Positions 1 through 57,340 of a stretch of DNA of 64,000 bases are shown here, one piece after another (positions within the stretch are counted from its first letter, which is position 1; every line of letters begins with the position of its first letter). The notes beneath the pieces are model-generated. The model was not told the origin of the DNA and ran no database searches. It saw only the letters and a list, made by a program, of their open reading frames with translations. Origin of the DNA: Ruditapes philippinarum (Eukaryota); NCBI RefSeq assembly GCF_026571515.1, contig NW_026857787.1:62001-126000 (forward strand). The letters are read 5' to 3'. Position numbers and translations under genes: made by a program.

Positions 1-516
1 AAATATCCATTGGCATGTATCGTTAAACGTTCAGTTGATAACAAGTGTGGTGATGTCTTTTTATATTTAAGGCAGTTGTTATATTTTATCCTTACATATT
101 TCATTGCCAAATATTGGTCAATGATCATTATAATTTTCTATCTTTTTTTAATACAAAGTAAATTCACCTCAACCCGACAATAAAAAATAGCATAATGTCA
201 TCAAGTGTTAGTTACATTGATCATGGAAAAAAACATGATATTGATTCAAGGTTTTAACAAATAACGTTTACCTGTAACTTTTTTTCTACATCTTATTAAC
301 ATGTATCTATTATTTACAAGATTTTATGTCGCGTTCAATGTACCCTTGTATTTATCGAAACTGTTAGCATTATACTTAAAGATTAAAAAAATCACAAGTA
401 ACAATTCAATTCATCTTATCTTATAGTTTTCTTTCAAAGAACAAAAAAGAATAGCTTATATGCTTGTACCATTTATATTGATATGATTACAGTGATTTTT
501 AATCTGTTTTATCTAG

Positions 517-723
517 ATTGCGGGAACATAACCTTGTCAAACATTTCAAATGCAAACGAGATATATTTTCTAAATGATACGAAATACGAATCATCAGCTA
601 ATATATCTTGTAACGAGGGATTCACTGTTAAAAACCAAGCTCAGACAAAAGACATATCATCCACTGTGGTAAAATGTGAAGAGAATGGAACCTGGGAGAA
701 ACTCCCTACATGTGTTAAGAAAG
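517..723 (+). CDS. Sushi exon 1 (long class)
   Basis: tctag|ATTGC...AAAG|gtaaac; DCGN...SCNEGF...KCEENGTWEKLPTC. Confidence 0.9.
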
Positions 724-6700: not shown

Positions 6701-9700
6701 GGTTTATCTGTAATTACTTTGATTAATACGAATGTAAATCTGATAAATGAATTAAAATATCTTACATTTACCTATAATAGAATATATTTGATTGTTTTTA
6801 AGAAAGAATAATTTCAAATTTTGTATAGATCTGTATTTTTCTTTTGTAATAACAGTTACTCTTTTATTATTATTGTAAAATAAGAAGACCGTACTAAAAT
6901 ATATACATGTATATGTATGCATGCTCTATCTTTAGATTGTGGTGACGTTAACAAAGAACATATAGATCATGCAGCAAGCATAAATCAGGATAATGGTACC
7001 ACGTTCAAATCAACTGCAAACGTACATTGTGATGAAGGCTATTATATCAAGGGTCAAACTCAATTGATGGAGATATCAACAAGAACAATAACATGCTCTA
7101 AAACGGGAAAGTGGACAGACATGCCGATCTGCATTCCTAAAGGTATCAGTGCAATATTGTAGATCTTTCTTACCACAATTATGCTAGTTGAATCCCTTTC
7201 TGATGTGTCAAAAGTGTCACAATGGATTCCAACCAATCATTAGCAATATAATTCTAACAAAATAATGTTGGAATATTTGATTTCACAAGAACAAAAAGTG
7301 ATTTATGTATAAGACAATTAAAATGTCTATCAGTTTTATAGTACTGTAATAGTAAAATGTAAAACACGGTATTATATATATGTACAACAACAACAACAAT
7401 AACAACAGCAACAACAGGTATTTAGTACTGTAAATACAAAAATGTATAAAAAAAAGGTTTAGTAATTTAATGTAATACAAATAAAACATATTGCTCACTA
7501 GAATTTGTCTCATTTGATTGTCATAATTTTATTCGCCTATTCATTGAATGTGCTGTTTCATATTTCAGATTGTGGAAGTTTACAAAACATAACTATGATG
7601 AACGCAGGTTCCAGAATGCCCATAAATGGAACCAACTATACAGCGATCGCCAATGTTAGCTGTGATGTGGGATTTAAAGATAAAGATGAAACACAGGTGC
7701 CGGGAGTTACAGGCAAGATTATCAGATGTAATGAAAGTGGAGTGTGGGACAATTTACCAAAATGTGTCCGAAAAGGTAAACATATATTTAATATCATGAA
7801 AAAGAAATACGCGAGATATGTGTTAATATTGGTACCCAACAGTCATGTTAATATAGTGAAGGTAACATTATTTTTGTGTAAGATAATTAAAAATAGCTCA
7901 TTTAATAGTTAATGTAAAACGAAACTTATTTAGTTAGAATTGAAATAATTATGTGATAGTTTACATAAAACGATTAAAAGAACTATCTTAATCAGGGTAA
8001 GTATATGAAGTTCCGCTAAGGGGAGTTAATTTGAGAGCAAAACTGGATAAACAAAGCAAATGAGTCTTACTTTAATATCGAGTTATCAATGACTTTGATT
8101 GCTTAAAATTATATCTATTGCTTTCAAGAGATTTGCTTGCGATCATTGAACCAATTTGATAAGATAAACGCACATATGAGTTTATAAAGATACCCTACTT
8201 GTATGTATTTAAGGATATGATACATGTACTTAGTATGCTATAATCAGTCACCAATTTTATGTAGACATTTTACACATTGTCATATGATGGACCGACAACA
8301 GCAGATAATACAACAACAACAACAACAAATACAAAAATTCAATAAATCAAGTTTATTACTCGTATTTACAAAAGAATTGAAATATCTACAAATGGAGAAA
8401 TGAAATGAAAATAAAATTCATTTCATAGACTAAAGCCTGTCATTTACTTTAAGGGAAAGTCGTACACTTTGAAATAAATCCTATACCTTGCACTTACAGT
8501 AACACGTTGTAGTGATACCAAAGTATACTGATACCCATAAAGATACCTATCACAAATTACGTATTGTTCTTGCAACCTCCATGCTGGCTTCTATGTTAAA
8601 TGTTAGCTTTTCTGATCTGACATCAGAAAGATCCAAAAATCACGAAATCAATACGAAAAGTAGGTGTTCGCTTTGAACAGACAGCACGAAAAATCCTTTA
8701 ACTTCATTTGCTGTCTGTAATCGTCAAAAGCGTAGCTCCCACCCTCTTTTGTATACGAGTCGTTATACCTGACACTATCTTCCGGTAATGAAATGTTCCT
8801 AGCCGTCTTTGCCGTATCGTGTCGGGATGGTACACTAGGATCGCTGGTTATCGACATACATGTATAGTCGTCCTTGCTGTATCGTGTCAGGATCGTACAC
8901 TTGGATTGCTGGTTATCGTCATGTTGCCGTCCTTGCTGTATTGTGTCGAGATAGTAGACTAGGATCGCTGGTTATCGTCAAGTAGCCGTCCTTGCTGTAT
9001 AGTATCAGGTTCGTACACTATGATCGCCGGTTATTGTCAAGTAACCGCCCTTGCTGTATCGTGTCGGGATAGTACACTAGGATCGCTGGTTATCGTCAAG
9101 AAGCCGTCCTAGCTGTATCGTGACAGGACCGTACACTAGGATCGCTGGTTATCGTCGAGTAGCCTTCCTTGCTTATCGTATCGGGATCGTACACTAGGAT
9201 CGCTGGTTATCGTCAAATAGCCGTCCTCCCTGTATCGTGTCGGGATAGTACACTAGGATCGCTGGTTATCGTCAAGAAGCCGTCCTAGCTGTATCGTGAC
9301 AGGATCGTACACTTGGATTGCTGGTTATCGTCAAGAAGCCGTCCTTGTTGTATCGTGTCGGGATAGTACACTATGATCGCCAGTTATTGTCAAGTAACCG
9401 CCCTTGCTGTATCGTGTCGGGATAATAAACTAGGATCGCCGGTTATCGTCAAGTAGCCGTCCTTGCTATATCGTTTCGTGATAGAACACTAGGATCGCTG
9501 GTTTTCATCAAGTAGCCGTCCTTGCTGTATTGTGTCGGGATAGTACACAAGGATCGCCGGTTATCGTCAAGAAGCCGTCCTTGCTGTATCGTGTCGGGAT
9601 AATACACTAGGATCGCTGGTTATCGTCAAGTAGCGTCCTTGCTGTATCGTGTCGGGATAGTACACTAGGATTGCCGGTCATCGTCAAGAAGCCGTCCTTG

Positions 9701-12700
9701 CTGTATCGTGTCGTGATAGTACACTAGGATCGCCGGTTATCGTCAAGTAGCCGTCCTTGCTGTATTGTGTCGGGATCGTATAGTAGGATCGCTGGTTATC
9801 GTTAAGCAGCCGTCCTTGCTGTATCGTGTCGGGATAGTACACTAGGAATGCTGGTTATGTCAAGAAGCCGTCCGTGTTGTATCGTGTCGGGATAGTACAC
9901 TAGGATCGCTGGTTATCGTCAAGTAGCCGTCCTTGCTGTATCGTGTCAGAACAGTACACTAGGATCGCTGGTTAACGTCAAGTAGCCGTCCTTGCTGTAT
10001 CGTGCCGGGATAGTACACTAAGATTGCTGGTTACCGTCAAGAAGCCGTCCTTGCTGTATCGTGTCGGGATAATACACTAGGATCGCCGGTTATCGTCAAG
10101 TAGCCGTCCTCACTGTATCGTGTCAGAACAGTACACTACGATCGCTAGTTATCGTCAAGTAGCCGTCCTTGCAGTATCGTGTCGGGATAGTACAGTAGGA
10201 TTGCTGGTTATCGTCAAGAAGCCGTCCTAGCTGTATCGTGTCGGGATAGTACACTAGGATCGCCGGTATCGTCAAGAAGCCGTCCTTCAGTATCGTGTCG
10301 TGATAGTACACTAGGATCGCCGGTTATCGTCAAGTAGCTGTCCTTGCTGTATCGTGTCGAGATAGTAGACTACGGTCGCTGGTTATCGTCAAGTAGCCGT
10401 CCTTGCTGTATTGTGTCAGGATCGTACACAAGGATCACTGGTTATCGTCAAGTAGCATTCCTTGCTGTATCGTGTCGTGATAGTACACTAGGAACGCTTG
10501 TTATCGTCTAGTAGCTTTTCTTGCTGTATCGTGTCAAGACCGTACCTTAGGATCGCTGGTTATCGTAAAGTAGCCGTCCTTGCTGCATCGTGTCGGGATA
10601 GTACACAAGGATCGCTGGTTATCGTTAAGTAGCTGTCATTGCTGAATAGTGTCAGGATAGTACTCTAGGATCGCTGGTTATCGTACAGTAGCCGTCTTTG
10701 CTGTATCGTGTCGGGATAGTACACTAGGATCACTGGTTATCGTCATGTAGCCGTCCTTGCTGTATCGGGTCAGAATCGGGCTTTTCAGACTTTCAACTGC
10801 TATAATCATTGACCAAGTTGTGGAGTCTAGCCCTGGGTCGAATACTTGAGATATAAAGCACCACAAGTCATATAATACTATAAAGCATTGGGCATAAATT
10901 TGCCCAATGTGGTACATCGTACCTTCACTGGTTCCTACAGTTAACGTTTCAAGTAATAAAGATTAGGTGTTACGGTAGTCACTGCTTGTCACCGAATTGT
11001 CACTGTTAATGATATATGAAAGTTGTTTCATTAATTAGTAAACCTGATGTTAAGTAATGACTAATAATTATAACAAGCACCTTGCAGCTAGTACAATCTT
11101 GCAATAAGATTTATGAATGAACATGCATACATGAATACCAAGATGTATAACGGACAAATATAATAACAGCGTTCCATATTTTAAATAATACATCATAATA
11201 AAACTCTGCCAATGGTACAACAAATGTATGTATGTACATTTCCAAAAGTATTTTCAAGTTAAAAGAAACTCTAGATTCTTCTCCCGCAAGCTATCTTTGT
11301 AAAGCAAAACAATTTACGTCAATCTGTAATGATGAAGAAGGAATCATCTGAGGGTTTTCTGCTTTGTCACGTGATAAAATAAATTTTAGTTACTGAACGG
11401 AATTAAAAGATTTTTACATGGAAATGCAAGTTAAGATAACAAGAAATGATACACTATAATAAATCGACATCTAGGATTTATAACACCCTTTCAGAATAAA
11501 ACCTGGAAATTTGCTACTATGTATATATATTGAAAATAGGGCCCGTATGACAATGTCTTTCGTGACACATACAACCTGATAAGCACATGCACTAAATTAT
11601 GCGAGGACCGAAATATTTGAAACGTTTTGAAACATAAAGTTGTTATAAACATCATTGTATAGATAAGCTTTACTGAACTGATTAAATAAAATAAGATGTA
11701 ATGGTATAAATACACTTTATATGGTGTTAATGGTAAGGTGCTTTTTTAAAGATCGCACTTATTTCAAACAACAACCAAACCAAAACTAACTAAAAGGGTG
11801 CAGTTGGTATAAAAATGCTTATTTGGCAGGATATCCTTTAACTTTGAAAATAAGCCTGTCTCTCGGTACTACGCCATTATTTTTTTTACAGCCTAAATTT
11901 ACTTGAAAGTAAGCCGGCCAGAAATAAGACTTTGATAGCATTACACCTAGATTGTATAGTTAACTGATATATGTATAAGGAATATAATTTATTAGACTGC
12001 GTGGTGTATAAAGCATGTGTTATGTTGAGATAAAGTTATGAACAGTTTTAAAAGATCGCCGTTTTGTTTTGTGTGTGGTTTTTGTTTCGATTTTTTTATT
12101 TTTTTAAGTTTCTGTAAACTAATCTATTTATAGACTGTGGTAACGTCAAAGATCTGAACCTCAACAACACAAATGAAACAGTACAACGGCATAATGACAC
12201 CAAGTTTAACTCTACAGCAGACGTGAAATGTCTGGAGGGATATTTCGATAACAACACACAATCACAAACAACTAGCATATCAACAACAACAATTCGTTGT
12301 TCGGATGAAGGGAAGTGGATTAACTTACCTCTCTGTGTACGCAAAGGTATCCACACATTTTAAATCTCCTTGTTGCCATATCAAATTGTGTTATTGTGCT
12401 TTATTTATGCTTATAATTAAAATCTATTAAAAACAAATAATATTCAATATAAAATTTTATCTATTTCTCTAGTATATTCACATTATTTTTATTTTCTGTA
12501 AGCTTAAGACAATTTGATTTTATCGCATAACGTAACGTCATATGCGCTAAACGTATGAAATGATGAAAGTTCTCGGTATTTTTAAATCATGCAAGAACAT
12601 ATAAATTTTATAGCTGTAAACTGTTGTTCGTACATTTAAAATTTATTGTCACTTTATTGTACAGATTCATTACAAAAAATATTGACTGATTACTGAACGT

Positions 12701-24700: not shown

Positions 24701-27700
24701 TGACAGGTGATATGACTCCATTTTAATACAAAAATATAACCTCTCAGAAATATATAAATAACGAATAAGTAATGAAACAAGCATCTTTTTTTTAATTTGA
24801 GAAAAAAGTGTGATTTATTGATAAACTGACAGTAACAAAACTATATAAACATCAACATTATTATTATAACTTTATTATATATAAAAACAACCTAAATAAT
24901 TTTTCAAGAAAGATCTGAAACTTTACAGATTGTGGCCAGCCTGCAGGTCCCACTTATGGAAACATAACAACAGATAATGGTACAACTTTCCAATCCGTTG
25001 CCATATACAGTTGCTATGTCGGCTACGATTTGATTGGTACTAACACAACAAAATGTCAGGCAAACAAAACATGGAGTTTACGTTTACCAAGATGTGACAT
25101 CAGAAGTTAGTTAAAATTCATAGTTATCTTCTTCGTACACACATATAATGTTTTCCTTAGTCAGTAAAGATGTTCCCATATATATTTAATTTATATTATT
25201 TTTATTATAATATTTATGTTCTGTTCATTTATTAAAAATGTGTTCAATTTTCTTAAAAACGCCCGTCAACTTGGCATGTACTTTAACGTATAATTCATTT
25301 TTTGTGTTTCTATAATGATTATCATAGGTTTAGGTAATATCAGCGGGTCGTTAAGTGACGTCACGTAATGTTACGCTGGAAATAAATCAGTGATGTATGA
25401 TAATATCGTGGGCTGTTACACAATTAGTTGCTAATACACCATTGTTTGTTGTTACATATTGATTGCTGTTACACCATTTGTTGCTGTTACATTTGTGTAA
25501 ATATCATTCTTGACCGTTTTCTAAGATTGTAGTCATCCGGATAATCCCGCTAATGGTACAGTTGATACGAGCAATGGAATAGTGTACATGTCAAATATAA
25601 CATACAGCTGTAATCCAGGGTATAACCTACAAGGAAATAACACCGCATTTTGCCTAGCTAACAAAACCTGGAGTTCGAAAAGACCGTCGTGCAATATAAA
25701 AAGTGAGTTCTTATTGAAGAAAATATGACACTTTTGTTGTTAAAAAGAATTATGATAGAAATGAAATATAATGATCATAATTAGCAATAGTCTTGGCCTT
25801 ATTATATTTTCTTTCTTAAACAATGCCTTCTAATAATTTTATGACATCCTGTCATATAAATTCAGTGTGTGGTTATCAAAAACCTAATCATAGTGTGAAG
25901 AGTGTTGAACTTAGAGGCCTTTCCACGCCTTTATTAACATAATTAAGTTTCATGTGTGATCTGGGATATGTGATATGTGTAAAGCAGAGGGATATGTAAT
26001 CGGTAGCAGAGATATATTTAGCCCAAATGGTATGTGGCCGAGAGATATGTGGAAGGTATATTTCAGAGTGATGTGTGATCGGCATATTGCGCAGTGATTT
26101 GTAATCGGTATATGACAAAGTGATATGTGATTGGCATGTAGTAGAATTGTGTGTGATCATAATACGATAGAGTGTTGTGTGATCGGCATGTAGCAGAAGT
26201 ATGGGTGATTGGCATATGTCAGAGTGATGTATGATCGGCATTTAGCAGAATGACGTGTGATTATAATATGATAGAGTGTTGTGGGATCGGCATGTAGCAG
26301 AATAATGTGTAATCATAATATGGTAGAGTGATGTGTGCTCGGCATGTAGCAGAATGACGTGTGATCATAATATGATAGAGTAGTGTGCGATCGGCATTAA
26401 GCAAGGTGATGTGTGATTACAATATGATAGAGTGTTGTGGGATCGGCATGTAGCAGATGTATGTGTGATTGGCATATGTCTGAGTGATGTATGGTCGGCA
26501 CATGGAATAGTGATATGTGATCGGTATATCGAACTGATATTTTATATATTATCGACCTATTGCAGAGTGTCATGAGAATGGCATATAGAAGAATAACATG
26601 CCCGACATATAGCAGCCTGATGTATGATCAGTATATTATAAAGTTTTTGTGATCGGCATATATCAGAGTGATAGATTATCATTGGCATATTACAGATTAG
26701 TGGTGTATGATCGGTATATTGTAGTGTGCGGCATACAGCAGAGTGATGTATTATAGGCATATTGCAGAGTTATGTATGATCGATATATTGTAGAGTGATG
26801 TTTGGTCGGCATTTTGTAGAGTGATATATGATCGGCATTTGCAGAGTAATGTGTGATCGGTATATTGTAGAGTGATGTGTGATTTGCATATAACAGAGTG
26901 ATGTATGATCGGCAATTGGCAGAGTGATGTGTGATCAGCATTTTGCAGAGTGATGGAGTATAGCAGAAATATATGTGATCTGTATATGGCTGAGAAATAC
27001 ATGATGATTGATTATGTATCAAATATTCGTATTTCTTATTTTTCAGCATGTGACAGGCTTGATAACCCTACCAATGGTTATATAAATCCTGCACCGGGCC
27101 ACACAATGAATTATAATGATAATGCTACATATACGTGCAATACAGGATACCGCATACAAGGTGTCGACTTTGTCACGTGCACCGCAAGTGGTAACTGGAG
27201 TAGTCCTCCCCCAGTATGTAAAGGTATATATATATGTTTGACAACCAGAAGTACTTAGTTAATGCATTTATGATACGAATGCTTCGGCCTCTAAATCTGG
27301 AAAAATAAAGCGCAGCCATGTTTTAATGGTAAGTTATTATAGTATACTTAACCACCGCGGAAACAATTAAGTAACGTGTAAATATTTGGATCAAGCGATT
27401 TGTCAGACACAGCTGAGCATGCCCAATTATACATTACATCATGCAAACATATAATTTTACGTGATTATTGTTTATTACTTATGAAAAATATTTTTACTCT
27501 TCCGTCTTTCAAATTAATTCAAGAAACTGTCCAAAGCGATAGTGAAATTATCTATGGGAACCGTGCTATAACATGTACTTGTAATTTGAAAAAAATAGCG
27601 TTATGATGAAGCTTGTGAGATACCATAGCCATTAGGAAGGTTCTGGTTTCTGTAGCCAAATATTTCCCTATTTTTAACTTGTGAAATTTTTTTGGTAGTG

Positions 27701-38965: not shown

Positions 38966-39970
38966 TTTTTGTGCCCCCTCTTGGGGGGAGGGGGGGGTAG
39001 ATTTACCCTTGTCCGTTCGTCCGTCCGTTCTTCCGTTCTCTTTTGTGTCGCACGTAACTCAATAAGTATTTGACATAGAGTCATGAAACTTAACGGAAAT
39101 GTTGATTAGCATGTGTAGTTGTGCACCTTTGTATTTTCGTTGGGATTTATTTATTAGTTTTAGAGTAATTGCCCTTGACTTGTTGAATTTTCAACTCTTG
39201 TCGCATGTAACTCGAAAAGGATTTGACCTAGAGTCATGACACTTTACAGGAGTGTTGATCAGCATGTGTAGTTGTGTACATAGATATTTTCGTGTGAAAT
39301 TATGTAGAATTTTTATAGTTATTGCCCTTGACTTAGTACAATTTTGCAATTTTCAATTTGTGTCGCATGTAACTCAAAAAGGATTTTACATATAGTCATG
39401 AAACCTTACGGGAATGTTGCTCAGCATATGTAATTGTGCATCCTGGGTTTCGCTTGTGAATTAATCCAGTATTTGTAAAGTAATTGCCCTTGACTTAGTT
39501 AAAACCGTTTCATTATGGTGTGTTATTTGTTCATTGAGTGCTTTAGTTAGAATCAACCAACTTTACAGGAATAATGATCAACATCACTAAATTACAGGAA
39601 TAATTATCAACATCACTTTGAAGCTATGTACCTGGGACTCGCATGTGGATTTCTTCAGTTTTTGCCCTTGACTTACAGTTGTATAAATTTGCAATTTTCT
39701 ACTTGTTCATGCATAACGGAAAATGCATAGGCCTGAAAGATTACAAGAATGTTGGTCAGCATGTGTACTTATGCACCTTGGGGTTTGTTTGTGGATTTAT
39801 TCAGTATTTGTAAATTAGTATTTGTAAAGTTATTGCCGTATACTTAGTAAAAGATTTTTAGTTTTCAACTTGTGGCACATGAAGTCCATAACATATTTGA
39901 CTTAGAGTCATAAGATTGACAGAACAGTGGTGTGTGGGGGCACCCGTGTCCTTTGCACACATTTCTAGAT
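38966..39970 (+). mobile_element. Helentron/HINE-like non-autonomous element with 150-175 bp internal repeats
   Basis: 5' tttttgtgccccc followed by (ccgt)n; repeated ttgcccttgact and gtcgcatgtaactc; 3' gggggcac (inverted copy of the 5' end), a small hairpin and ctag. Confidence 0.7.
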
Positions 39971-43846: not shown

Positions 43847-44419
43847 TCAGAACCTGTTGATAATATTCCTTAAAACATCCCAATTAACATGTAAATTATC
43901 CGTGTCGCAGTCTTCTATTGCTTGTACAATAACGTCTAGTGTAGCTTGATCCCCTTCTTTCTTTTCCCATTTCAAAAACATTTCATATATGCGCATTGCA
44001 GCAGTATCTTTATTCATACAAATGTGATCTAAAATTATTTTATCAAGACCAAGTTGCAACCCGAGAAGCTCCCAACCTTTCCCAATTGCCATTGCCAAAG
44101 TGCTATACTCTTTATTTGATAATTTTCTCTTCGGAACAGTATCAACTTTTAAATCTGGCTTTAACCATTCCTTCACAATAGTGTGTGTCTGAAGGCAGTG
44201 ACTCGCTCTATCCGGACATGGTACTTTCTCATCACTACATGATTGTATATTGTCAATAGCAAATGTTTCATAACTTCCCTTGCTCCCATGATCTTGGTGT
44301 AAACATCTTGCAGAAATATGACTGATAAAATGCCCCTCATGTTTATTGTCATGCAATTTATGCATCCGTTTGATAATAACCGTCTCTACGTATCTCCGAA
44401 ACATATCACAGACAGCAGC
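43847..44419 (-). CDS. Roco gene: end of COR and C-terminal Death domain (downstream of the premature stop)
   Basis: LSNKEYSTLAMAIGKGWELLGLQLGL...IYEMFLKW...ATLDVIVQAI fits the death-domain pattern; same frame as the COR ORF. Confidence 0.85.
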   Translation of the reverse strand, partial: AAVCDMFRRYVETVIIKRMHKLHDNKHEGHFISHISARCLHQDHGSKGSYETFAIDNIQSCSDEKVPCPDRASHCLQTHTIVKEWLKPDLKVDTVPKRKLSNKEYSTLAMAIGKGWELLGLQLGLDKIILDHICMNKDTAAMRIYEMFLKWEKKEGDQATLDVIVQAIEDCDTDNLHVNWDVLRNIINRF

Positions 44420-45141
44420 CTAAACATTGTCTGGAGGACAGAGACTAACAACAAGAAGCTCGAGTTTGTTTTTCGACAGCATCAGTACACCAGCATGTCC
44501 TCGTTCTATTTCACATGCAGCTACATTATCATATAAAACAGGGTTGCCATTGAACTTGACCAGTGGCCACCGTCCAATTATACGGGCCAAACACGTCTGA
44601 AAAGTGAAGGGCACCATCGTTTCATTTTCAAACTCGTAGCACAAAGAAACAGTTGACAAGGGTTTTCCTTCCAAAAATAACCTCATATTGTCATCATCGG
44701 CTGAAATCTTGAGTAAACTTGGTACAATGAAAAACCCTAATCGCTCAACAGTCATCCCAGAATTATGATTATAAGCTAGGACCTCCGCTATAATATGATG
44801 TTTTTGCATGTACCCTATCAGCAATTGTTTGAATTCATAAAAATCGTTATCTTTTTCTTGTCTCCAAACCTCTTCAAAAAGGTCTGCGCGTAAAATTGCT
44901 GTCGTACACAATTCCTTCCATAAGCTTCTCATTTTCGGACGCACTTTGCAAAATTTTTCAGATGTTATAACGCACCTGAAAGCATCAACAAGAAACTGTG
45001 GATCTAAGACAACATGGTCTGACAAATTATCCTCATCAAAATAACAGAATGTTCCCTTTGAATGATGATATGAAAGAAACAGTTTGATCTGGTCCATTGT
45101 TTCTCTTGAGTTGTCAGTTTGTAATGGACTGTCCGTTTGAC
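44420..45141 (-). CDS. Roco gene: COR domain segment
   Basis: FLSYHHSKGTFCYF...VVLDPQFLVDAFRCVIT...FIVPSLL; TAG at 44422-44420. Confidence 0.88.
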
Positions 45142-45314
45142 ATGTAGTTCTCCGCGTTACATCGTATAGACGGAGAACTGTTGTCTCAACAGGTGCGATA
45201 TCAAAACTGGTATAACCAGTTTGGTCACGTGATAAGAGTTATTGACCGTGCGTACGTACGATTAGTGGTCAGTTCTACAGAGACTCTCGCTTGGTACACG
45301 TCGTTAACTACATT
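45142..45314 (+). repeat. Split direct repeat A1 (173 bp)
   Basis: Identical by eye to 50501-50673. Confidence 0.95.
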
Positions 45315-45328
45315 GGGAAGTTTTTATC

Positions 45329-45623
45329 ATGGATCGAGATACTCACGACATTATCAAGGACGTTTGTAAAGGACACCGTGGAGAAAGCAGGCAGTCTTTA
45401 CTTCAAGAAATTGGGACGATGTTCGAAAAGATAAGTGAACAAAATAATTCTTCTCAATTTGCTAGAATAAGCAATTTAGTGGCATCATCTCAGCCAAAAT
45501 TTAAAAGGAAAAGCAACGAAGAACAGTTTTGTCATAATAGTAAATTTATGTTGAAGCTTAATGAAGCCGAGTCTAAGTTAGATAGCAGTAAAATTGAGGA
45601 GGCCAAAAGCAGTATTACAACAG
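45329..45623 (+). CDS. DIRS gag-like exon 1
   Basis: MDRDTH...KFKRKSNEEQF...AKSSITT; donor ACAG|gtttgt. Confidence 0.75.
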
Positions 45624-46560
45624 GTTTGTGTTTAAAAAACAAAACAAAAACTTAATGAATTCTACTCTATTCCATTTATAAGAAGCATTTTCAATTTGCA
45701 AAAGCTTGGTTTTTATTCAGCAGTTTTAAATTCGGGATACAATTAATAAATTCGCTATTTTCTAATAGTTTTTACGTGTTTAATGTGTAGACCACGTGGT
45801 CTCGATACACGTGTCTTTTGTTATACTAGAGGTGAATTGTTCTGTATGAAGATTGTTGGGATATGTTTATTGCTAAAGGAATAGTAATGCTAATAATAAG
45901 AATGATAATAAATATAAAAATTATATGTCTATTATATTTAAAAAAAAAAAAAAATCTTTGTTTCTTCTGTTTTCAAATTTATTTAGATTAATGTCTTTTT
46001 GGACATAAGTACATAAAAAAAAAAAAAAAAAAAAAAGATAAAGATTTTATAAGCTGATGTGATCAATATAGATGTTTTTTGCATGGTTAGCAATGACTAA
46101 TGTGGACTCGCCTTTTCTTTAACATGTATAAATAGGGGATTCATGTTTTATAGTATTACTGATATAGTTACATTATAAACTTGCATACGCATGTCACAGA
46201 TTTAAAACCCGTTGCGTTGGTAATGCGCAGGCCGATATGAATAAGTTAGAGTAGTATCATTTATAAATAAATTAAGTGATACTATAAATGGCGGTAGCAC
46301 GGGTTTTGCATGTTTACTGATTGAGATATTTTTAAAGTATAGCAAACACAGGAAAACTACGAATGACGGTAATATATTAGTATTTGTTAGATACGGCTTC
46401 TTTTATTTTCAAAGTTTGTAAGAAAATTATGTATTATATCAATGTGATTTTCAGTTACAAGGATTATATCACAGGAGTTGATTATATTGACTCATAAAGA
46501 TTATATTATTTATAGAAATTATGTTAAATATTTTTAGTAATAGGCAAATTTTTCTTTCAG

Positions 46561-47970
46561 CCTTGGATATTTTGTCACACCGACAAAAGATGATACAGTT
46601 GGCGGATGCTAGTGAATTGGGGTGGAGAGTAGTTCATGAGTATGAACAAAATCCTCTAGCAGACGACAGCGATGATGAAAAGAAAATGTATAAAGCTGAA
46701 GTCAGGGCTGACAGGAAGTTCAAAGCTGAGAAAAATAAGAAGTCTAAAAAGTTTAGAACCAAGCCTTACACCAGGAGTGTACCTGCACGAGCTACAAGTC
46801 AATCCACTTCGCAGCAATTTGGTGTACAGAAACCAGGCTTATGTTTTTACTGTGGAAAGCCGGGTCACTGGAGAAAAGAATGTCCAGCAAATACTACAAA
46901 TTTGAATAATAAGATGAGTACATTTTGTTTATTTAATAAACATTGCGATATGCTAGACAGTGATTCATTGAATCACAATTACAGGGAACAAATAAATAAT
47001 GAGGCAATTAGTTGCGATTCGAACCAAAATGATTCAGAAAATGAAATCGTTGTATTTCCTAAAAAATGTTTAAATCTTAATGTTTCTTCTGTGAATCACG
47101 GATATTGTTCTCAGCTGAACAGTGAATGCTCAGTATCAGTAGCAGAGCATTTTGGGTCTAAAAAAGAAAAACTTAAATGTGTAATATCGCCAGTAGGAAG
47201 ATTGAAGGCTCATGCTAGCAAATGGCGATCTATCAATGGCGATTCTTTCATTGTAGACGTTATAGAAAATGGTTACAAATTGCCATTTAGAAATATTCCT
47301 AGTAAAGTAATGCTTAAAAATAATAAGTCCGCTAGAGACAATCCGTCTTTTGTTACGACGGAAATAGAGTGTTTACTAGAAAAACATGTTATTTCGGTAG
47401 TAGATCACGTGCCTGAAGTTGTAAATCCGTTGACTGTGGCTTATAATAAGGCCGGAAAAGCAAGGTTGGTTTTAGATTGTAGGCATGTAAATCAGTTTTT
47501 GCATCTATTCAAAATCAAGTTTGAAGATGTTCGTGTCGCTCAGTCTCTATTTAGTGCTGGGGTTTTTGCTTTTACTTTTGATTTGAAAGGAGCTTATCAT
47601 CACATCGATATTTTTCAAGCTCATAGGAAATATTTAGGTTTTTCATGGATCTATAATGGTCAACAGACTTATTTTGTGTTTAATTCACTTCCATTTGGAA
47701 TAGCTAGCGCAGGGCATATTTTTTCTAAAACTGTCCGAGTATTGGTCATGTACTTAAGGTCATTAGGTCATAAGGTGATAATGTATCTTGACGATGGCAT
47801 CGGTGGTCATATTAATTTCCGAGAAGCATTAGAAAGTAGTGCATTTGTAAAAAGTACATTGATTAAATATTATATAATAGTTTTTTTGTTTGCGGAAGAA
47901 AAGTGTCATTGGTTTTCCTGTCAAAAAGTCACATGGTTAGGTTGTAATTTTTTTTTCATAATAAGTTTTT
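46561..47970 (+). CDS. DIRS gag exon 2 (CCHC knuckle) continuing in frame into reverse transcriptase
   Basis: RQKMIQLADASELGW...DDSDDEKK; CFYCGKPGHWRKEC; FDLKGAYHHIDI, LPFG, YLDD. Frameshift in the T-runs near 47950-47970. Confidence 0.92.
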
Positions 47971-48847
47971 TGTCACAGAAGAACGAATGTCTGTCACAGA
48001 CAACTCAATTGGGTCTGAATTACATCAGATAAGTTGTGACAAGTGTAGTGTTCTACCAGTCCGTGTGTTAGCGTCTTTGGTTGGACGTCTGATTTCTCTT
48101 CAATTTGTCTTTGGTAACATAGTGAGATTGAGAACGAGAGAGATGTATAAATGTATCATCTCTAGGGCTAGTTGGGACTCGCCAGTTTTAGTGAGCGAAT
48201 CAGCCATACATGAAATTATGTACTGGAAAGAAAATGTAAGAAAATTGAATGGATCAGGTAAATACATGTCTGAAATGAAAGTGTACGATATACACGTATT
48301 TTGCGATGCCAGTGGATCTGGTTATGGTGGTTACCTATATTTTCCGAGCAATGAAGCTCAATTACATTCTAATATTCAAATGAGTGGAACATTGCTATCC
48401 CCGGAAGTGGATTGCATGTCGAATGTTATGTTGAAATCACCGATTTCTTCAGCTGTTTCCCCGGAAGTGGAAAAATGTATGCTAGATAATACAAAGAAAA
48501 GTATAGATATAGATACGAAAGTCACTGGAAGTTGGCTTTTTGAAGAACAGATTAAAAGTTCTTCTTGGCGTGAGGTTGAGGCAGTGAATAGGGTTGTTAG
48601 AAGTCAAGCACAATTTCTCAAAAACAAAAATGTGAAAGTTTTTTCTGATAATCAAAATGTAAAATCGATTCTTTTGAACGGCAGTGTTAACGCAGAGCTT
48701 CAAAAAATTGCTTTAGGTTTCAATGATTTTTGTGAAGAAAATAATATCCATATTAGCCCGGAATGGATACCTAGAGACAATAATCAGATATCAGATTATT
48801 TGAGTAGATGTCTTGTTTGTGATGATTGGTCAATATCAGATCGTTGA
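47971..48847 (+). CDS. DIRS RT connection and RNase H
   Basis: FCDASGSGYGG...SSSWREVEAV...FSDNQNV...WIPRDNNQISDYLSR. Confidence 0.9.
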
Positions 48848-49260
48848 TTCAGATATTTTGATTGTATTTGGGTAATACACACAATAGATAGGTTTTCTAC
48901 TCATTATAACACTCATTGTGAAAGGTTTAACTCTTAGTGGTGGGTACCAGGAACGGAAGCTATAAATGCTTTGGATCAGTCCTGGAAAATGATAATAATT
49001 GGTTAGTTCCCCACTCGGCTAATAGTAGAGTGTATAAACAAAATTGTAAAGGAAAATGAAAGTTGCACATTAATTATACCAAAGTGGAAATCTTCAGCTT
49101 TTTTTTGGCCTTGCTTGTTTGATACAAAACGTAATTTTAAAACTTACATAAGAAATGCAGAGGTTTTTACAAAAAATGGAATAATACGTACTGCGAAAGG
49201 TAATAACGGCGTGTTTGCACACACACAATTGCGTTTTGTATGCTGGCACTTAAGATCAGG
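48820..49260 (+). pseudogene. Degenerate DIRS adenine-methyltransferase-like domain
   Basis: DDWSI...HTIDRFSTHYN..C.RFNS*WW.PG.EA.NA..Q.W / NNWLVP / TLIIPKWKS..FWP, with two stops and frameshifts. Confidence 0.75.
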
Positions 49261-49317
49261 TTTTAGTTTGGAGTGCCAATATAGAGACATGTACTGTATT
49301 CTATTTTACAGTATTTT

Positions 49318-50361
49318 ATGAAGTTTATGATATTTGTCATTTCGATTATAGGTGTTGACTTAAAACCTTCAATCAGGAGCATGATGAACAACGCAGGAGT
49401 GGACATTCAAAAACATCAAACTGTTATTGATCACATGGCAGGTTATATTGTACAATCCCGGGCAGTTTCTACTAGACAGAAATATATGAACTATTTCAAA
49501 CATTTCGAAAAATATTGTGTCAAAAATGGTTTTGTTTCCAAGCCAGCTTCATCTATAGTTGTAGCAATGTATTTAACAAACATGTTAGATCACGGAAAGT
49601 CGTACGGTGTTATTTCTTCTACCGTATATTCTATTAAATGGATGCATTCTTTGCATGATTATGTGGATCCTACTACGAATTCAATGGTTAAACATTTATT
49701 GGAAACAAGTAAACGAGAATGCTATGAACCTGTTAAAAAGAAAGATACAATAGATTCGGAAATGTTACAAACATTATGTGATAATTTTTCAGATTCCAGC
49801 GACGTGGTAACCTTAAGAGATCTGTCAATTATTCTTTTAGGTTTCGCTGGGTTTTTACGTTTCAACGAACTGAATTCTTTAATTTGTTCAGATATAACAT
49901 TCAATGATGATCACTTAGTGATAAACATTCGTAAGAGCAAAACTGATGTGTATAGGCAAGGAAAATCTGTTCCGATTTGTAAGGGTACTACTAATGCATG
50001 TCCTTTTAATATGCTTAAAAAATATATGAGGGCAGCTTGTCTTGACGTAACCTGTAATGAATTTTTGTTTAGGCCATGTTTTAGGTCAAAGGGGGTATCG
50101 GCGCTTATAAAAAGTAATAAAAAGTTGTCTTACACACGAGTTAGGGAATGCATTTTGTCTAAATTAAAGTTAGTAGCACCAAATTTAAATTTAGGTACAC
50201 ATTCTCTGAGAGCTAGTGGAGTTACGGTGGCCGCTAACTCAGGTGTGTCTGATAGATGTTTAAAGAGACATGGCCGTTGGAAAACTGATATAGCTAAGGA
50301 CGGTTATATTGTTGATTCATTAGGCAGTCGATTGTCAATTACAAAAAAGTTAAAGTTATAA
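49318..50361 (+). CDS. Tyrosine recombinase (intact ORF)
   Basis: Catalytic set GFLRFNE (R), KSKTD (K), HSLR (H..R), HGRW and DGY (Y). Confidence 0.95.
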   Translation: MKFMIFVISIIGVDLKPSIRSMMNNAGVDIQKHQTVIDHMAGYIVQSRAVSTRQKYMNYFKHFEKYCVKNGFVSKPASSIVVAMYLTNMLDHGKSYGVISSTVYSIKWMHSLHDYVDPTTNSMVKHLLETSKRECYEPVKKKDTIDSEMLQTLCDNFSDSSDVVTLRDLSIILLGFAGFLRFNELNSLICSDITFNDDHLVINIRKSKTDVYRQGKSVPICKGTTNACPFNMLKKYMRAACLDVTCNEFLFRPCFRSKGVSALIKSNKKLSYTRVRECILSKLKLVAPNLNLGTHSLRASGVTVAANSGVSDRCLKRHGRWKTDIAKDGYIVDSLGSRLSITKKLKL

Positions 50362-50442
50362 GTATTTTATAGATACTTTTTTATAAACATATGAATAATT
50401 AATTGAATTTTAATGTTTTTCGTCTCAAGCTTTGTAATTTCT

Positions 50443-50673
50443 ATACGTGTCTCGCCTTGCAGTTGTTGTTGTTGTTGTTTTGGATAGTGCCTGTTGAGAC
50501 ATGTAGTTCTCCGCGTTACATCGTATAGACGGAGAACTGTTGTCTCAACAGGTGCGATATCAAAACTGGTATAACCAGTTTGGTCACGTGATAAGAGTTA
50601 TTGACCGTGCGTACGTACGATTAGTGGTCAGTTCTACAGAGACTCTCGCTTGGTACACGTCGTTAACTACATT
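50443..50673 (+). repeat. Internal B1+A2 junction of the split direct repeats
   Basis: B1 50443-50500 abuts A2 50501-50673 directly. Confidence 0.95.
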
Positions 50674-51137
50674 AAAATTCAATAACATTTGTGCAAAATG
50701 ATGTTTATATATGCTTTTATTTGTTTAATTAAGAGGCATGTCTGAACTGTTTCCGTTGTTCAGTATTTCTAGGAATAGTCGGGGCATTTCAATGTTAACG
50801 CATTGACTAGGCTACGGAAACACGTTTCCTCCTGTTTTTAAAAAATAATGAAAAGAAAAGATAGGGGGTTTTTCGTGGGCGGCCCGTATTCTGATGAAGA
50901 AATATACGTTTGAATTTTCGATTTCCGTCATGATTGAAAACATTCTGGCTTTGCTTTAGAGGTTTTATCAGATTATTAACATGACGCAAATCGCATTTTC
51001 GATTGTAGCATGCTTATATTTATCTAATAGAATACACATGATTAATGAGTGATTAATTCTTGAGTTATAGAATTATATTGTAATAGAAAAGTATTATTGT
51101 AATAACGAATGTTTACTCCTCAGTTGTGTACCAATAA

Positions 51138-51195
51138 ATACGTGTCTCGCCTTGCAGTTGTTGTTGTTGTTGTTTTGGATAGTGCCTGTTGAGAC
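51138..51195 (+). repeat. Split direct repeat B2 (58 bp), preceded by AATAAA
   Basis: Identical to B1, including (gtt)6; aataaa at 51133-51138. Confidence 0.95.
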
Positions 51196-52365
51196 TGTCT
51201 ATTTCTATAAGTTCATCAAGTTTTATAATTCTTTTGTGTTTGTTCATTTTAAGTGCTTTCTCAAGTAGAATCCATTTAGCCGGAATTCTTGTTTTCATTT
51301 GTATTTTTCCTAAACGTGTTATATACGACCGTAAAGCATCAATTTCGCTTTCTGACTCACTTGTATTTGAAATAGCAAATTGATCAGGTTGAATATGATT
51401 AAGACATACACTGTCGTCAAATATTTGCCTGACCTCCTCAAAATAGTCCTCGACCTTACTGTCCATATTTAGTTTGTCCGTGTGGGTTCCTACTAAAATA
51501 ATAGCCGGTTCCATTCCATCCCTACTGCCAACAAATGAATTTACAGAAGCCACCCAGAATTTTAAATAGTCCCTCATTCTCTTTTGATGTAATGGGAACT
51601 CCTTATCTTCAATTATTGTGTCCAGGGATATGCTTAAATTAAACACTAGCACATAAACAGCATGTTTTGAATGAAATATTTGATGGGTAGCATAATAGAC
51701 AAACTGTCCTCCGAAGTCCCATATATTTAGCGTAACATTGTTGTCAAGGTTTATTGCCGCCTCAATGGATTCAACTCGTTTTAATTCAGTCTGAAATGAA
51801 TTTAAATTTTCGTAATTGACTGTTTTATTTCTAACATAAATATCAACAGCGCCAGCAATTTTAGTTTTGTTTTCTTTAACGTTTTCTCTTCTTTTGCCAT
51901 TGTACTCATCAGATATATCAATTATTTCGAGACCACGTGCTGAACAAATTTTGTTTTTATCTCTTGTTCTTGATATATCCGTAACTGAAGTGGGTGCTTC
52001 TTCATCTTTGTTAAGCAGTCCTTTTTCCCCATGAGTAACCGATGCAAATGTCTCGTACGTTCTTTCTCTTAGTGCAATATTGACCAAGCGCTGAACAGTT
52101 TCTTCGTCAAGATCTTCATTGTCTAACTTCTTCCATTCATTTTCGCTGATAACTGTGCATTTATGCAAGTCAATACCGTTGGTTGTTTCAACTCCTTCAA
52201 CTGACTTTTTCAATAAACGCCTTACTAATGACGTTTTGCCTTGCTCGCAACAACCAATAACCATAACTCGTATTGTGTTATCATTTTCTGTCCCTTTCTC
52301 TAATGCTTTTTCATAGAGTTCTCTTGTTTTTGGATCATTTGAAAGCTCATCTGGTACTGTATTTT
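51196..52365 (-). CDS. Roco gene: Roc GTPase domain and start of COR
   Basis: Acceptor ttttatag|AAAATACA; G1 GCCEQGKTS, G2 TNGID, G3 WDFGGQ, G4 VGTHTD, G5 ISN; then IPAKWILLE. Confidence 0.93.
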
Positions 52366-52694
52366 CTATAAAAAAACAAACATTAAACTACCATTTTTTC
52401 GTTACATGTGTTAAAACTTAGCCCATTCAAACAAAATATCTTTTTCAGCGTTTGCATTTTAATGGCGAACTTAAAATATCAATCAATATCCAAGACAACT
52501 AGGGGAAGGTTAATATATTAAGGTACTCAATCTACATAAATTTTGTAGATTTTTTGGGCCCTTTTTTAAAATGCCATCAGACATTTAGGAAAATAAGATC
52601 TGTTAATTGTAATTCTAAACTTTGCAGTACGGAAAAATTGGAAAGGTTGCATGTAGGATACAAATTAAGTCTAAAGAAGCATCAAACAATATTT

Positions 52695-54165
52695 ACAAAA
52701 GGGCCATGAGTCCTGAGTCGTTCACCAGAAACAACTGCTTTTCAGTAGAAGATAAAAGACGCCCCTAATAATGCTACAGACAAAGTTTGGTGATCATCCA
52801 TCAATCATTTCAGTTGGAGATGATGTTCAAATGTTTTTCTAATTACAGCTTTAGCGGCCCATAAATGGGGCAAATCAAATTGATACGAGCAAATGTGATA
52901 AAAGACTACCTAAGAATACTACAGACAAAATTTTGTGATCAACCATAAACTATTTCAGTAGGAGATGATGTTCAAAGGTGTTTCTACGTTTAGCTGTATC
53001 GGCCCCTAAAAGGGGCAAATCAAATTAATATGAGCAAACTTGTGAAAAGACAACCTGCGACTGCTACAAACAAAGTTAAATGATCATCCGTCATTTATTT
53101 CAAAAGGAGTTGATGTTCAAAGGTTTTTCTATTTTTAACTTAAGCAACCCCTAAAAGGGCCAATCAAATTAATATTAGCAAACTTGATAAAAGACTACCT
53201 AAGAATGCTACTGACAAAATTTGGTGATCATCCATCGATTAGTTTTGTAGAAGGAGACGTTTAAAAGTATTTCTGATTTTAGCTTAAGCAGTCCCTAGAA
53301 GAGGCCAATCAAATTAATATGAGCAAACTTGATAAAAGACTACCTCGGAATGCTACAGACATAATTTGGTGATAATCCATCAATAATTCAGTAGGAGATG
53401 ATGTTCAAATATGTCTAATTTAAGCTTTAGCGGCCCCTAAAAGGGGCCAACCAAATTAATATGAGCAAACCTGATAAAATACTACCTAAGAATGCTACAG
53501 ACAAAATTGGTGATCATCCATCAATTAGTTCTGTGGAAGGAGACCTTCAAAGGTATTTCTTATTCTAGCTTTATCGGCACCTGAAAGGGGCCAATCAAAT
53601 TAATATGAGCAAACTTCATAAGGCATTACTTAAGAATGCTACAGACAAAATTTGGTGATCATGCATCAATAATTCTTTAGGAGATGATGTTCAAATGTTT
53701 TTCTTTTTTAGCTTTAGCGGAACCAAAAAGTAGCCAACCAAATTAATATGAGCAAACTTGATTAAATACTACCTAAGAATGCTACAGACAGAGTTTGGTG
53801 ATCATCCATCACTTACTGAAGTTCTGCACAAGGAGATTTCTAAAGGCGTTTCTTTTTTTAAGTCTAGAAACCCCTAAGAATGCTACAAACAAATGTTGGT
53901 GATCATCCATAATTTAATTTAGTAGTAGAAGATGTTTTAAGGTTTTTCTATCTTTAGCTCTGTTGACTCTTAAAAGGGTCCAATTGAAATGACATGAGCA
54001 AATTTAAGTGTGACTGTCACAAGGATGCTACAGACCAAATTTGAGGTAAATCTGCCCATTATTTGCAGAATAGAAGATGATTGTTTACACATGACGACGG
54101 ACCCCGAGTACCCCCTTTGATACTAATAGCTCAACCTGAATCTGCATCTCTGATTAGCTATAAAT
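52695..54165 (-). mobile_element. Helentron/HINE-like element with about nine 144-bp tandem subunits (Roco intron)
   Basis: Unit atgctacagacaaa.tttggtgatcatccatc...aaattaatatgagcaaact; termini acaaaagggccatg and atagctcaacctg...agcta. Confidence 0.75.
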
Positions 54166-54263: not shown

Positions 54264-54902
54264 CTGAAACGAAATAATGATCAAATAAATAATTTAGCGC
54301 ATATATTCATACCAGCTTTTGCATTATAAAGCAAGTGGTCTTGGATATTTCATAGGAATATAACGCTTATCACGCTAACGCTTTAATGATGCATCTTCTA
54401 TTTAGTAGTGATTTTCCGTCATAAGTTATTGTTAATCATGTGGATTTTGTTTGTTTGTTTCATTTTACGCCTTTTCCCAACACTATTTCAGTCATATAGG
54501 CGGGTAGTTTCCTAACCATTGTTCCTGGAGAGTTACACCAGTACTAGACAACCTTCCTCCGCGCTAAACTATAATCACGTGGAAAGCTTTGCTATGATGT
54601 TAAAACATATATATTATAAATATTATAAAACAATATATATATGCTGTTTCTTAGTTCAAACAATTAAGCATGTAAATTGAAAATAACATTTTATGCTATA
54701 ATACTAAGTAATATCCAAATGAATATTATTACTAATCAATATGTCTTTTTATAAACAAACAAAACTGGTTATTGCTTCTCATTTCATGTATATCAAATGT
54801 GTATACAGGAAATGCAACACTGGCACTTATTTTAGCAAAGGAAAATGTTCATGCTTAAAAGAACTTAAAAGCAATAGAAATTTACAATTTTATCTTACTT
54901 AC

Positions 54903-55140
54903 TTCTATAAGTTTTGGTATACTAAAGAAAATATTATCATCCCTCTCAATTTGAAAATATTCACCAGGATTTGTGTACTTGATTTGAAACTGGAGTGCTT
55001 GTTTTCCAAGCGTTGGTCTTTTTACAACAAGAACAAGCCAATCTGGATGTGATTGACTTCGTCGTACGAGAAAGGTTCCATTTTCCTGATATTTCAGAAG
55101 TTTCTCTGATTTAGCATAAGAAATATTTCCATGGAACCAC
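54903..55140 (-). CDS. Roco gene: main SH2 exon
   Basis: WFHGNIS...GTFLVRRSQS...FFSIPKLIE|gtaagt. Confidence 0.93.
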
Positions 55141-55449
55141 CTGGAATTTGAATTTCCGAGTTCGTTCAACACAGCATATATAATTTGAATCTGTGATATG
55201 TATCTATTTAAGATGTCTTAATACGGAAATGTTAGAGCTACATGAAAATAAACGGAAAATACGCGGAAATGAGTAGAACTCTATATTGGTTGTCTTTAGA
55301 TTTCACTCCTTAGCTGGAAATGAAATGGTTACAGTTTATGTCCTTGTAAAAAAAAGACTTTATCTGTAGCTTTTTGTAAGTATTATTAATTCAATGTTTT
55401 CTCTTTTTTGGTTGTTAATCTGTAAAAAAAGAAATTATTTAATACTCAC

Positions 55450-56665: not shown

Positions 56666-57340
56666 TTTTTTATGCCCCCGAAGGCAGGCATAATATAATC
56701 GCACCGTATGTCTGTCCGTCCGGGTATCCGTCCGTCCGTAGGTCCGTCTGTGCGTCCCCACTTCATTCGTGTCGGACTGTAACTTTGTTATACATTAAGG
56801 GATTTTGAAATAACTTGGCACAAATGTCTACCACATCAAGACGATGTGTGGCGTCCAATAACCACGTCCCGACCTCAAAGGTCAATGTCACACTATCGTT
56901 TTGAAGTTTTACATTATTGTAATGAGAGTCAATAGGTTCACACATTGGTCATGCATCGAATGATTTTAAAATAACTTGGCATTATGTCTTCCACATCAAG
57001 ACAATGTGTCGCGTCTAAGAATTACGACTCTACCACAAAGGTCAATGTGACACTAACATCTGGAAGTTTCACATCACATTTAGAATTAATAGGTACACAC
57101 AATCGTGTCCGGGCTGTAACTTTGTCATGCATGGAAGGATTTTTAAATAACTTAGCATAAATGTCCACAACATCAAGACGATGTGTCGCGTTTAATAATA
57201 ACGTCCCTTTCTCAAAGATCAAGGTCACACTACCATGTTGAAGTTCACTTAAGCACAATTAAAGTTTAAAGGTACACACATTCGTGTCCGGGCTGTAACT
57301 TTGTCAGGCATTGAAGGATTTTAAAATAACTTATAACATA
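56666..57340 (+). mobile_element. Truncated Helentron/HINE-like element with about 175-bp subunits
   Basis: tttttatgccccc...ggcata, (ccgt)n, repeated tcgtgtcc.ggctgtaactttgt and aaggtcaa.gtcacac. Confidence 0.7.

Follow-up and report, generated by a model that had tools for sequence, protein, structure and literature searches.

The window analysed here, a stretch of 64,000 nucleotides of Ruditapes philippinarum DNA (contig NW_026857787.1, positions 62,001 to 126,000), contains a young PAT-like tyrosine-recombinase (YR) retrotransposon whose gag gene is interrupted by an intron that is almost certainly real, spliced and inherited. The explanation that best covers the whole, and that we consider probably correct, is that this intron is spliced from the RNA of the element and kept in its DNA, and that the element makes four RNA forms. 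Two parts of this account go beyond an earlier note on this DNA, namely a probable second splice that removes pol and a likely second use of the donor of the gag intron.

Architecture of the element and its insertion site

The element occupies positions 45139–51195 and interrupts a host gene (^ marks a splice border here and below).

45139–45314, + strand: repeat A1 of the split direct repeats, 176 nt, 100% identical to A2, starting with the 3-nt core GAC
45329–45623, + strand: gag exon 1, from the ATG at 45329; 295 nt, or 98 codons plus 1 nt (phase 1)
45624–46560, + strand: intron 1, 937 nt, GT..AG, 26% G+C, phase 1; spliced in RNA-type contigs, unspliced in DNA
46561–46913, + strand: gag exon 2, with the conserved Gag core and a CCHC knuckle at about 46839–46886
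46911–46919, + strand: AAG^ATGAGT, a non-canonical donor in phase 0 (46914 is the first base skipped) that related elements have conserved
46914–49266, + strand: pol, in frame with gag, with RT, RNase H and a methyltransferase-like end
46914–49351, + strand: second, alternative intron, 2438 nt, AT..AG, containing all of pol; joint in X10 only
49352–50361, + strand: YR exon, behind the acceptor ...GATTATAG^GTG, phase 1 to the YR frame
50443–50500, + strand: repeat B1, 58 nt, 100% identical to B2, with no AATAAA ahead of it
50498–50673, + strand: repeat A2, sharing a GAC overlap with B1
51133–51138, + strand: AATAAA directly ahead of B2, predicted to direct polyadenylation of the full-length RNA
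51138–51195, + strand: repeat B2, 58 nt, ending in GAC
43847–52387, − strand: host Roc-COR-Death gene, interrupted by the element, its frame continuous across the empty site

The repeats follow the split-direct-repeat layout A1-ORFs-B1A2-spacer-B2. The presence of AATAAA ahead of B2 and of none ahead of B1 would fit a single RNA ending in B2. Pfam matches to zf-CCHC, RVT_1, RT_RNaseH (below cut-off) and Phage_integrase were found, giving a gene set of gag, RT/RNase H and tyrosine recombinase with no DDE integrase. A match to Pfam Dam follows RNase H, with an E value of 0.004 for the Logan protein P0029 and values from 5e-6 to 6e-5 for three relatives. The match is weak, none of these values reaching the curated cut-off, and points to a PAT-like rather than a Ngaro element, an assignment made from layout and domains, the RT tree covering unnamed relatives only. 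Ngaro, which was the first guess, shares the repeat layout and gene order but was dropped, since Ngaro elements are described in the available text of PMC3266345 as having no methyltransferase-like domain. A DIRS1-like identity was also set aside; the ends show only direct repeats, and neither inverted terminal repeats nor an internal complementary region was found.

Contigs from four read runs (X10, X5, X1 and X18), of 20 containing the element, were compared at the element, and runs X21–X24 (share 0.00–0.04) were left out of the comparison. X10 is recorded as RNA and X5 is RNA by guess only, while X18 was taken as DNA solely by inference from size, its contigs totalling 1,723 million letters, which suggests genomic DNA. 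All of the run evidence is in the form of assembled contigs, which carry neither strand nor RNA level. Empty sites, with 45141 joined to 51196 and a shared core GAC, were present in X10, X5 and X18, loose ends being recorded in the same three runs. The same core is found at both ends of the element and at B1/A2, with no long target duplication. The identity of the A and B repeats, the 3-nt core and the empty alleles agree with a recent integration by YR. Exon 1 of the window differs from all four runs in a short frame-shifted stretch near 45363–45382, and its pol is broken at approximately 47870–48030 and 48850–49290, where all four runs also differ. With terminal repeats that are identical, the breaks in pol may be an assembly error.

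The Roc-COR-Death gene has an additional in-frame stop at 44420–44422, between COR and Death, and X10, X5 and X18 contain several gene variants in which the site is empty. Element ORFs also hold short tandem duplications that have CC(G/T)G(A/G)(A/G)G as their core, located in the part encoding RNase H in the window (48395–48480) and in the related locus L010 (3022–3112), and between gag and RT in the related locus L006 (844–1036). Elsewhere in the window are three putative exons resembling sushi/CCP domains (402–7912, + strand), an open frame resembling an SH2 domain exon (54882–55217, − strand) and tandem arrays at 8800–10771 (period 59), 26055–26983 (period 52/26), 39042–39500 (period 153–162 nt), 52751–53815 (period 145) and 56948–57333 (period 179 nt).

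The gag intron in RNA, in DNA and among relatives

On inspection of the sequence, intron 1 starts at the donor ACAG^GTTTGT at 45624 and ends in TTTCAG at the acceptor TTTTTCTTTCAG^CCTTGG (46560/46561), where the acceptor tract is caaatttttctttcag. Joining exon 1 to exon 2 gives ...AKSSITTALDILSHRQKMIQLADASELGW..., open for 588 aa, and the borders, length and phase-1 join are exactly those that the earlier note had proposed. Its description of the segment as AT-rich and non-coding with long A-runs was equally accurate, with runs of 15 nt (45940) and 22 nt (46015) in a sequence of 26% G+C, in which the longest stop-free stretch is 41–66 codons, depending on frame. The GT..AG ends, the pyrimidine tract and the precise removal in RNA are features of a U2-type intron; a strict YTRAY branch point was not found within the last 60 nt.

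The earlier note had predicted spliced RNA across this border, and the exact 937-nt GT..AG joint (45623>46561) was present in the contigs of two of the four runs, X10 and X5. It was not found in the contigs of X1 or of X18, the X18 set of joints omitting one at a repeat. The depth in X10 was 35.2 for the spliced joint and 11–13 for intron-holding contigs, and in X5 the corresponding values were 24.4 and 11.2. In the probable DNA of X18, intron 1 is covered at depths like those of the rest of the element, the bin with the A-runs excepted. X1 holds only the intron-containing form of the element. Over window positions 45139–50440, the X1 sequence has a depth of about 116, is unspliced only, lacks the host flank and has a variant B repeat; its source may be either DNA of the element or RNA that was not spliced. 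The joined form is represented by P0029, a 998 aa spliced Gag-Pol on a 4260-nt contig, and is also carried by the NCBI models P0001 and P0002 (Ruditapes and Mercenaria). The nearest named protein is a Ruditapes philippinarum model with 94% identity over exon 1.

Both ends of an intron were found at the same phase-1 codon in seven of 80 metagenome loci, which are related and not independent, with lengths of 177–927 nt (L002, 301; L003, 397; L007, 178; L009, 177; L010, 822; L045, 927; L066, 240). The acceptor side alone was visible in L001, L004 and L055. Despite the shared codon and phase, the intron sequence is unrelated between families. In a quick tree of 55 rows, all of the intron-bearing loci included grouped with the window family in a single 18-row clade (SH-aLRT 98). 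P0129, P0140 and P0143, mislabelled as the intron type by the script, fell outside this clade, P0015, P0016 and P0086 are unlabelled, and P0002 and P0318 were excluded for short RT. One intron gain would be the simplest reading of these sequences.

As the relatives with the same-codon intron are approximately 50–58% identical in Gag, the intron appears to have survived many rounds of RNA-mediated copying, and this survival would need an unspliced template. The proposal of the earlier note that unspliced RNA is the template while spliced RNA makes the protein is thus supported by an intron that is cut from RNA-type contigs and kept in DNA, and we consider it likely that unspliced RNA is the copying template and that the spliced RNAs make the proteins. 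Retention of the intron in other copies, a further point of that note, held for the seven loci above and not for L005, which shares 94–96% identity over gag with L007, L009 and L066 and has lost intron 1 precisely, together with the donor. This loss indicates that spliced RNA is sometimes copied. The 4.6 kb upstream of the L005 gag looks like host DNA.

The earlier note had also named two findings that would count against an inherited intron, a family with no spliced RNA and a secondary insertion with its own ends. Spliced contigs exist. An AT-rich segment with A-runs could be accounted for by a secondary insertion confined to one copy or family, or by a spread of copies through DNA duplication in which the intron never passed through RNA. 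The window and retrieved loci, however, yielded no second copy of the segment, no terminal inverted or other terminal repeat, no target duplication and no dispersed copies of the kind expected from a MITE or SINE insertion. The occurrence of unrelated intron sequences at the same codon and phase in diverged families, and the identical A/B repeats, 3-nt core and empty alleles that fit fresh YR integration, argue further against this reading, to which we give next to no credence.

Other matches were of several kinds. The contig ends of L006 (1–99/4211–4309) and L010 (1–39/5492–5530) are direct repeats, as expected for split-repeat elements assembled as circles, and are no evidence of free circles. 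Viral contigs included no true relatives, only knuckle matches. The four matching GTDB loci, one of them a duplicate, look like animal DNA inside bacterial bins. The YR-related proteins P0225 and P0238 and loci L103–L106, which carry bacterial MAG names, are probably host-animal DNA in bins.

Probable splicing around pol and the recombinase

The AT..AG joint (46913>49352) was found in one of the four runs, X10, in one contig with 28 nt on the short side, at a depth of 16.5, the pol contig having a depth of 28.1. The joint has a 2-nt AG ambiguity and, allowing for this, reads AT..AG. It drops pol, and the YR exon is then read in phase 0 as three residues and a stop, so that Gag ends NNK-VLT-stop at 219 aa. 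The doubly spliced RNA of the window element is 1929 nt to B1.

Comparison with related elements supports this splice strongly. Of 13 loci in which the gag-pol frame is open, 12 have AAG^(A/T)T(A/G)AGT downstream of the knuckle in phase 0, the +1 base being A in 11, T in one and G in none, hence never GT; L034, which has an aberrant short junction, was left uncounted. The donor codons are fixed (AAG, ATA/ATG/TTA, AGT) and the background codon shares are 0.39 for AAG, 0.34 for ATA and 0.22 for AGT, in a comparison listing 10 of the 12 donor sites, L005 and L012 being excluded by the length filter. At the protein level, a K/Q/E/R-(I 61, L 18, M 9, V 0)-S/C motif was present in 88 of 128 homologous proteins with the knuckle. 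The pyrimidine-rich AG acceptor is also conserved in relatives, with a stop 1–3 codons on in five of the six loci inspected, L018 being the exception. P0048, a Logan protein from another family (225 aa, on a 2025-nt contig), ends NNK-VLV-stop, as predicted for the doubly spliced form. The short gag proteins P0054, P0069, P0084, P0092 and P0102, with ends K-A-stop, Q-V-stop or K-stop, were not counted, being annotation models with no paired unspliced form.

A U12-type second intron was considered and rejected, because the donors ATGAGT, ATAAGT and TTAAGT have a U1-type context unlike the U12-type donor consensus RTATCCTT. For human cells, the available text of PMC6280755 ranks non-canonical donors GC > TT > AT and has AT-AG hybrids as thought to be U2-spliced, and the AT-AG cases tabulated in the accessible part of PMC1557818 are rare U12 types.

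In L009, which has kept intron 1, the non-GT donor is the exact point at which, within 921–1119, the copy gives way to unrelated sequence, and the tail matches neither pol nor YR. In the distant relatives L013–L033 and L036–L040, gag is closed by a stop and pol is in a separate frame; the phase-0 non-GT donor is absent, the phase-1 donor and YR acceptor are mostly kept, and some show AAG^(A/T)TAAGT further down, in phase 1.

Even with a real intron 1, the AT..AG joint could be a template-switch artefact or come from a deleted DNA copy, in which case AAG^nTRAGT would be an uncut U1-binding element acting, for example, in nuclear RNA retention or in suppression of early polyadenylation. The single contig from a single run, the 2-nt AG microhomology, a +1 base that is never G and the break in L009, which makes a DNA or RT breakpoint at the donor site possible, are all compatible with this. 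It does not, however, explain why the joint lands on a conserved pyrimidine-rich AG with a stop shortly after it or why the same product is found in another family as P0048, and neither the AT..AG joint among the X18 contigs nor a pol-deleted gag-YR locus among the 32 loci holding both gag and YR was found. We regard an artefact as quite improbable and the pol-removing splice as quite likely real.

The acceptor of this splice also bears on expression of the recombinase. Among 120 YR homologues, similarity starts at the Gly that is split by the acceptor, and for 63 of the 64 homologues scored, the residue before this Gly is compatible with YAG. In 13 of 15 families, the acceptor that scored best at the start of YR was in phase 1; the score is a crude one and placed the window's own YR acceptor, confirmed in RNA, second. 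No Met precedes the conserved S[RK]xxT motif in six of the 15 families. Relatives without intron 1 have a Gly at the intron codon, encoded by GGT in 17 of 20 contexts against a background of 38%, and in 10 of 22 loci, scored with a frequency table, this codon ranks first among the gag donors. A GGT donor in intronless relatives, together with a phase-1 YR acceptor, suggests that the donor is older than the intron. Judged from these sequence comparisons, the exon-1 donor probably serves YR, and intron 1 probably originated at a donor that YR was using already.

Computed joining of exon 1 to the YR acceptor gives a frame open for 434 aa. The corresponding joint (45623>49352) was found in none of the four runs. 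In X5, the exon-1 depth of 36 is fully accounted for by the two known branches (24.4 + 11.2), and the contig continues unbroken through the YR acceptor. No exon-1-YR fusion was present among the 120 YR homologues, or in an exon-1 search of longer proteins, which gave two hits among 58 candidates. The NCBI gag-YR models P0014, P0200 and P0318 were rejected as support for a fusion, as they use other GT donors with the same YR acceptor and support the acceptor only.

These negative results would suit an alternative in which the intron is kept only because unspliced RNA wins a packaging race and YR is translated from the doubly spliced RNA by re-initiation at a Met of its own, with no second use of the donor. 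In-frame YR ATGs at 49381, 49384 and 49435, 18–75 nt past the Gag stop, and a Met approximately 27 residues into YR that is kept in 102 of 116 homologues are in keeping with it, and an internal YR start at this conserved Met may occur. Yet YR similarity begins upstream of that Met, at the acceptor Gly, six of 15 families have no Met there at all, and a GT donor is kept at the same codon in intronless relatives. We consider re-initiation with no second donor use rather unlikely and prefer use of the exon-1 donor for YR. That such a dual-use donor locks intron 1 in place is possible, and in our estimate falls only a little short of an even chance.

A model of expression and its relation to known systems

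In the model that we favour, a single primary transcript would extend from A1 to B2. The unspliced RNA would serve as the template. Removal of intron 1, for which the joint was found, would give Gag-Pol (998 aa in P0029), and removal of intron 1 and the AT..AG intron, the joint found in one run, would give the 219-aa Gag alone with YR downstream. The non-GT donor would keep this pol-removing splice partial. Finally, splicing of the exon-1 donor to the YR acceptor would produce a 434-aa leader-YR protein. A single gain would have placed intron 1 behind a donor already in use for YR in relatives that lack the intron. Because precise intron loss removes the donor, intronless copies would be poor founders. 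More tentatively, and in our view somewhat less likely than not, there may be a broad animal PAT-like clade with retrovirus-like splicing, in which a U2 donor that is never GT (AAG^ATAAGT, ATGAGT, TTAAGT) meters Gag against Gag-Pol and a phase-1 leader donor supplies the recombinase. The non-coding intron of one subclade would then have been born on the leader donor and be locked there, since its loss would destroy recombinase expression.

In Ty1/Copia elements (Arabidopsis EVD, barley BARE and Drosophila copia) and in retroviral env splicing, a pol-dropping spliced RNA gives Gag and the unspliced RNA is the genome. Unlike the clam element, these are LTR elements with a DDE integrase and canonical GT donors. 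We know of no non-coding intron in Ty1/Copia elements or retroviruses whose removal is needed to read Gag. Introns have reportedly been mentioned for some fungal elements.

PAT-like elements (order DIRS), as described in the available text of PMC3266345, PMC7192593 and PMC6681497, have the same A1-ORFs-B1A2-B2 layout, the same gag-RT/RH-MT plus YR gene set and integration with a 3-nt core; the clam element differs in adding a spliceosomal intron in gag, an in-frame gag-pol, an AT..AG splice that removes pol and a YR behind an acceptor. Penelope-like elements also retain introns through transposition, but differ in RT class and endonuclease, and the introns cited in the available text of PMC8557442 are mostly in the 5' UTR, whereas that of the clam element lies within the coding part of gag and is linked to which protein is made. 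An engineered intron was lost in new DIRS-1 copies, according to the part of PMC7192593 available, which indicates that YR elements can copy spliced RNA. Among the papers found by a literature search, none describes native introns or splicing for elements of the DIRS order. The word 'intron' is absent from the DIRS-order surveys PMC3783388, PMC9210276, PMC6681497 and PMC3266345, and no native DIRS-order introns appear in the available text of PMC13465315, PMC9341512, PMC8226300, PMC5718144, PMC10294476, PMC8547959 and PMC12477816.

How DIRS-order elements express three proteins has been little studied, and inherited retrotransposon introns have so far been treated as a Penelope speciality. The contigs described here support, at the level of RNA, an intron inherited within the coding region of a YR retrotransposon from an animal. 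With intronless sister lineages and a precise loss event, intron gain and RNA-mediated intron loss can be studied in one family. The splice structure also explains the wrong starts assigned by gene callers to these Gag and YR proteins. Conservation of a non-GT donor in many invertebrate elements would be a natural example of selection favouring a weak splice site.
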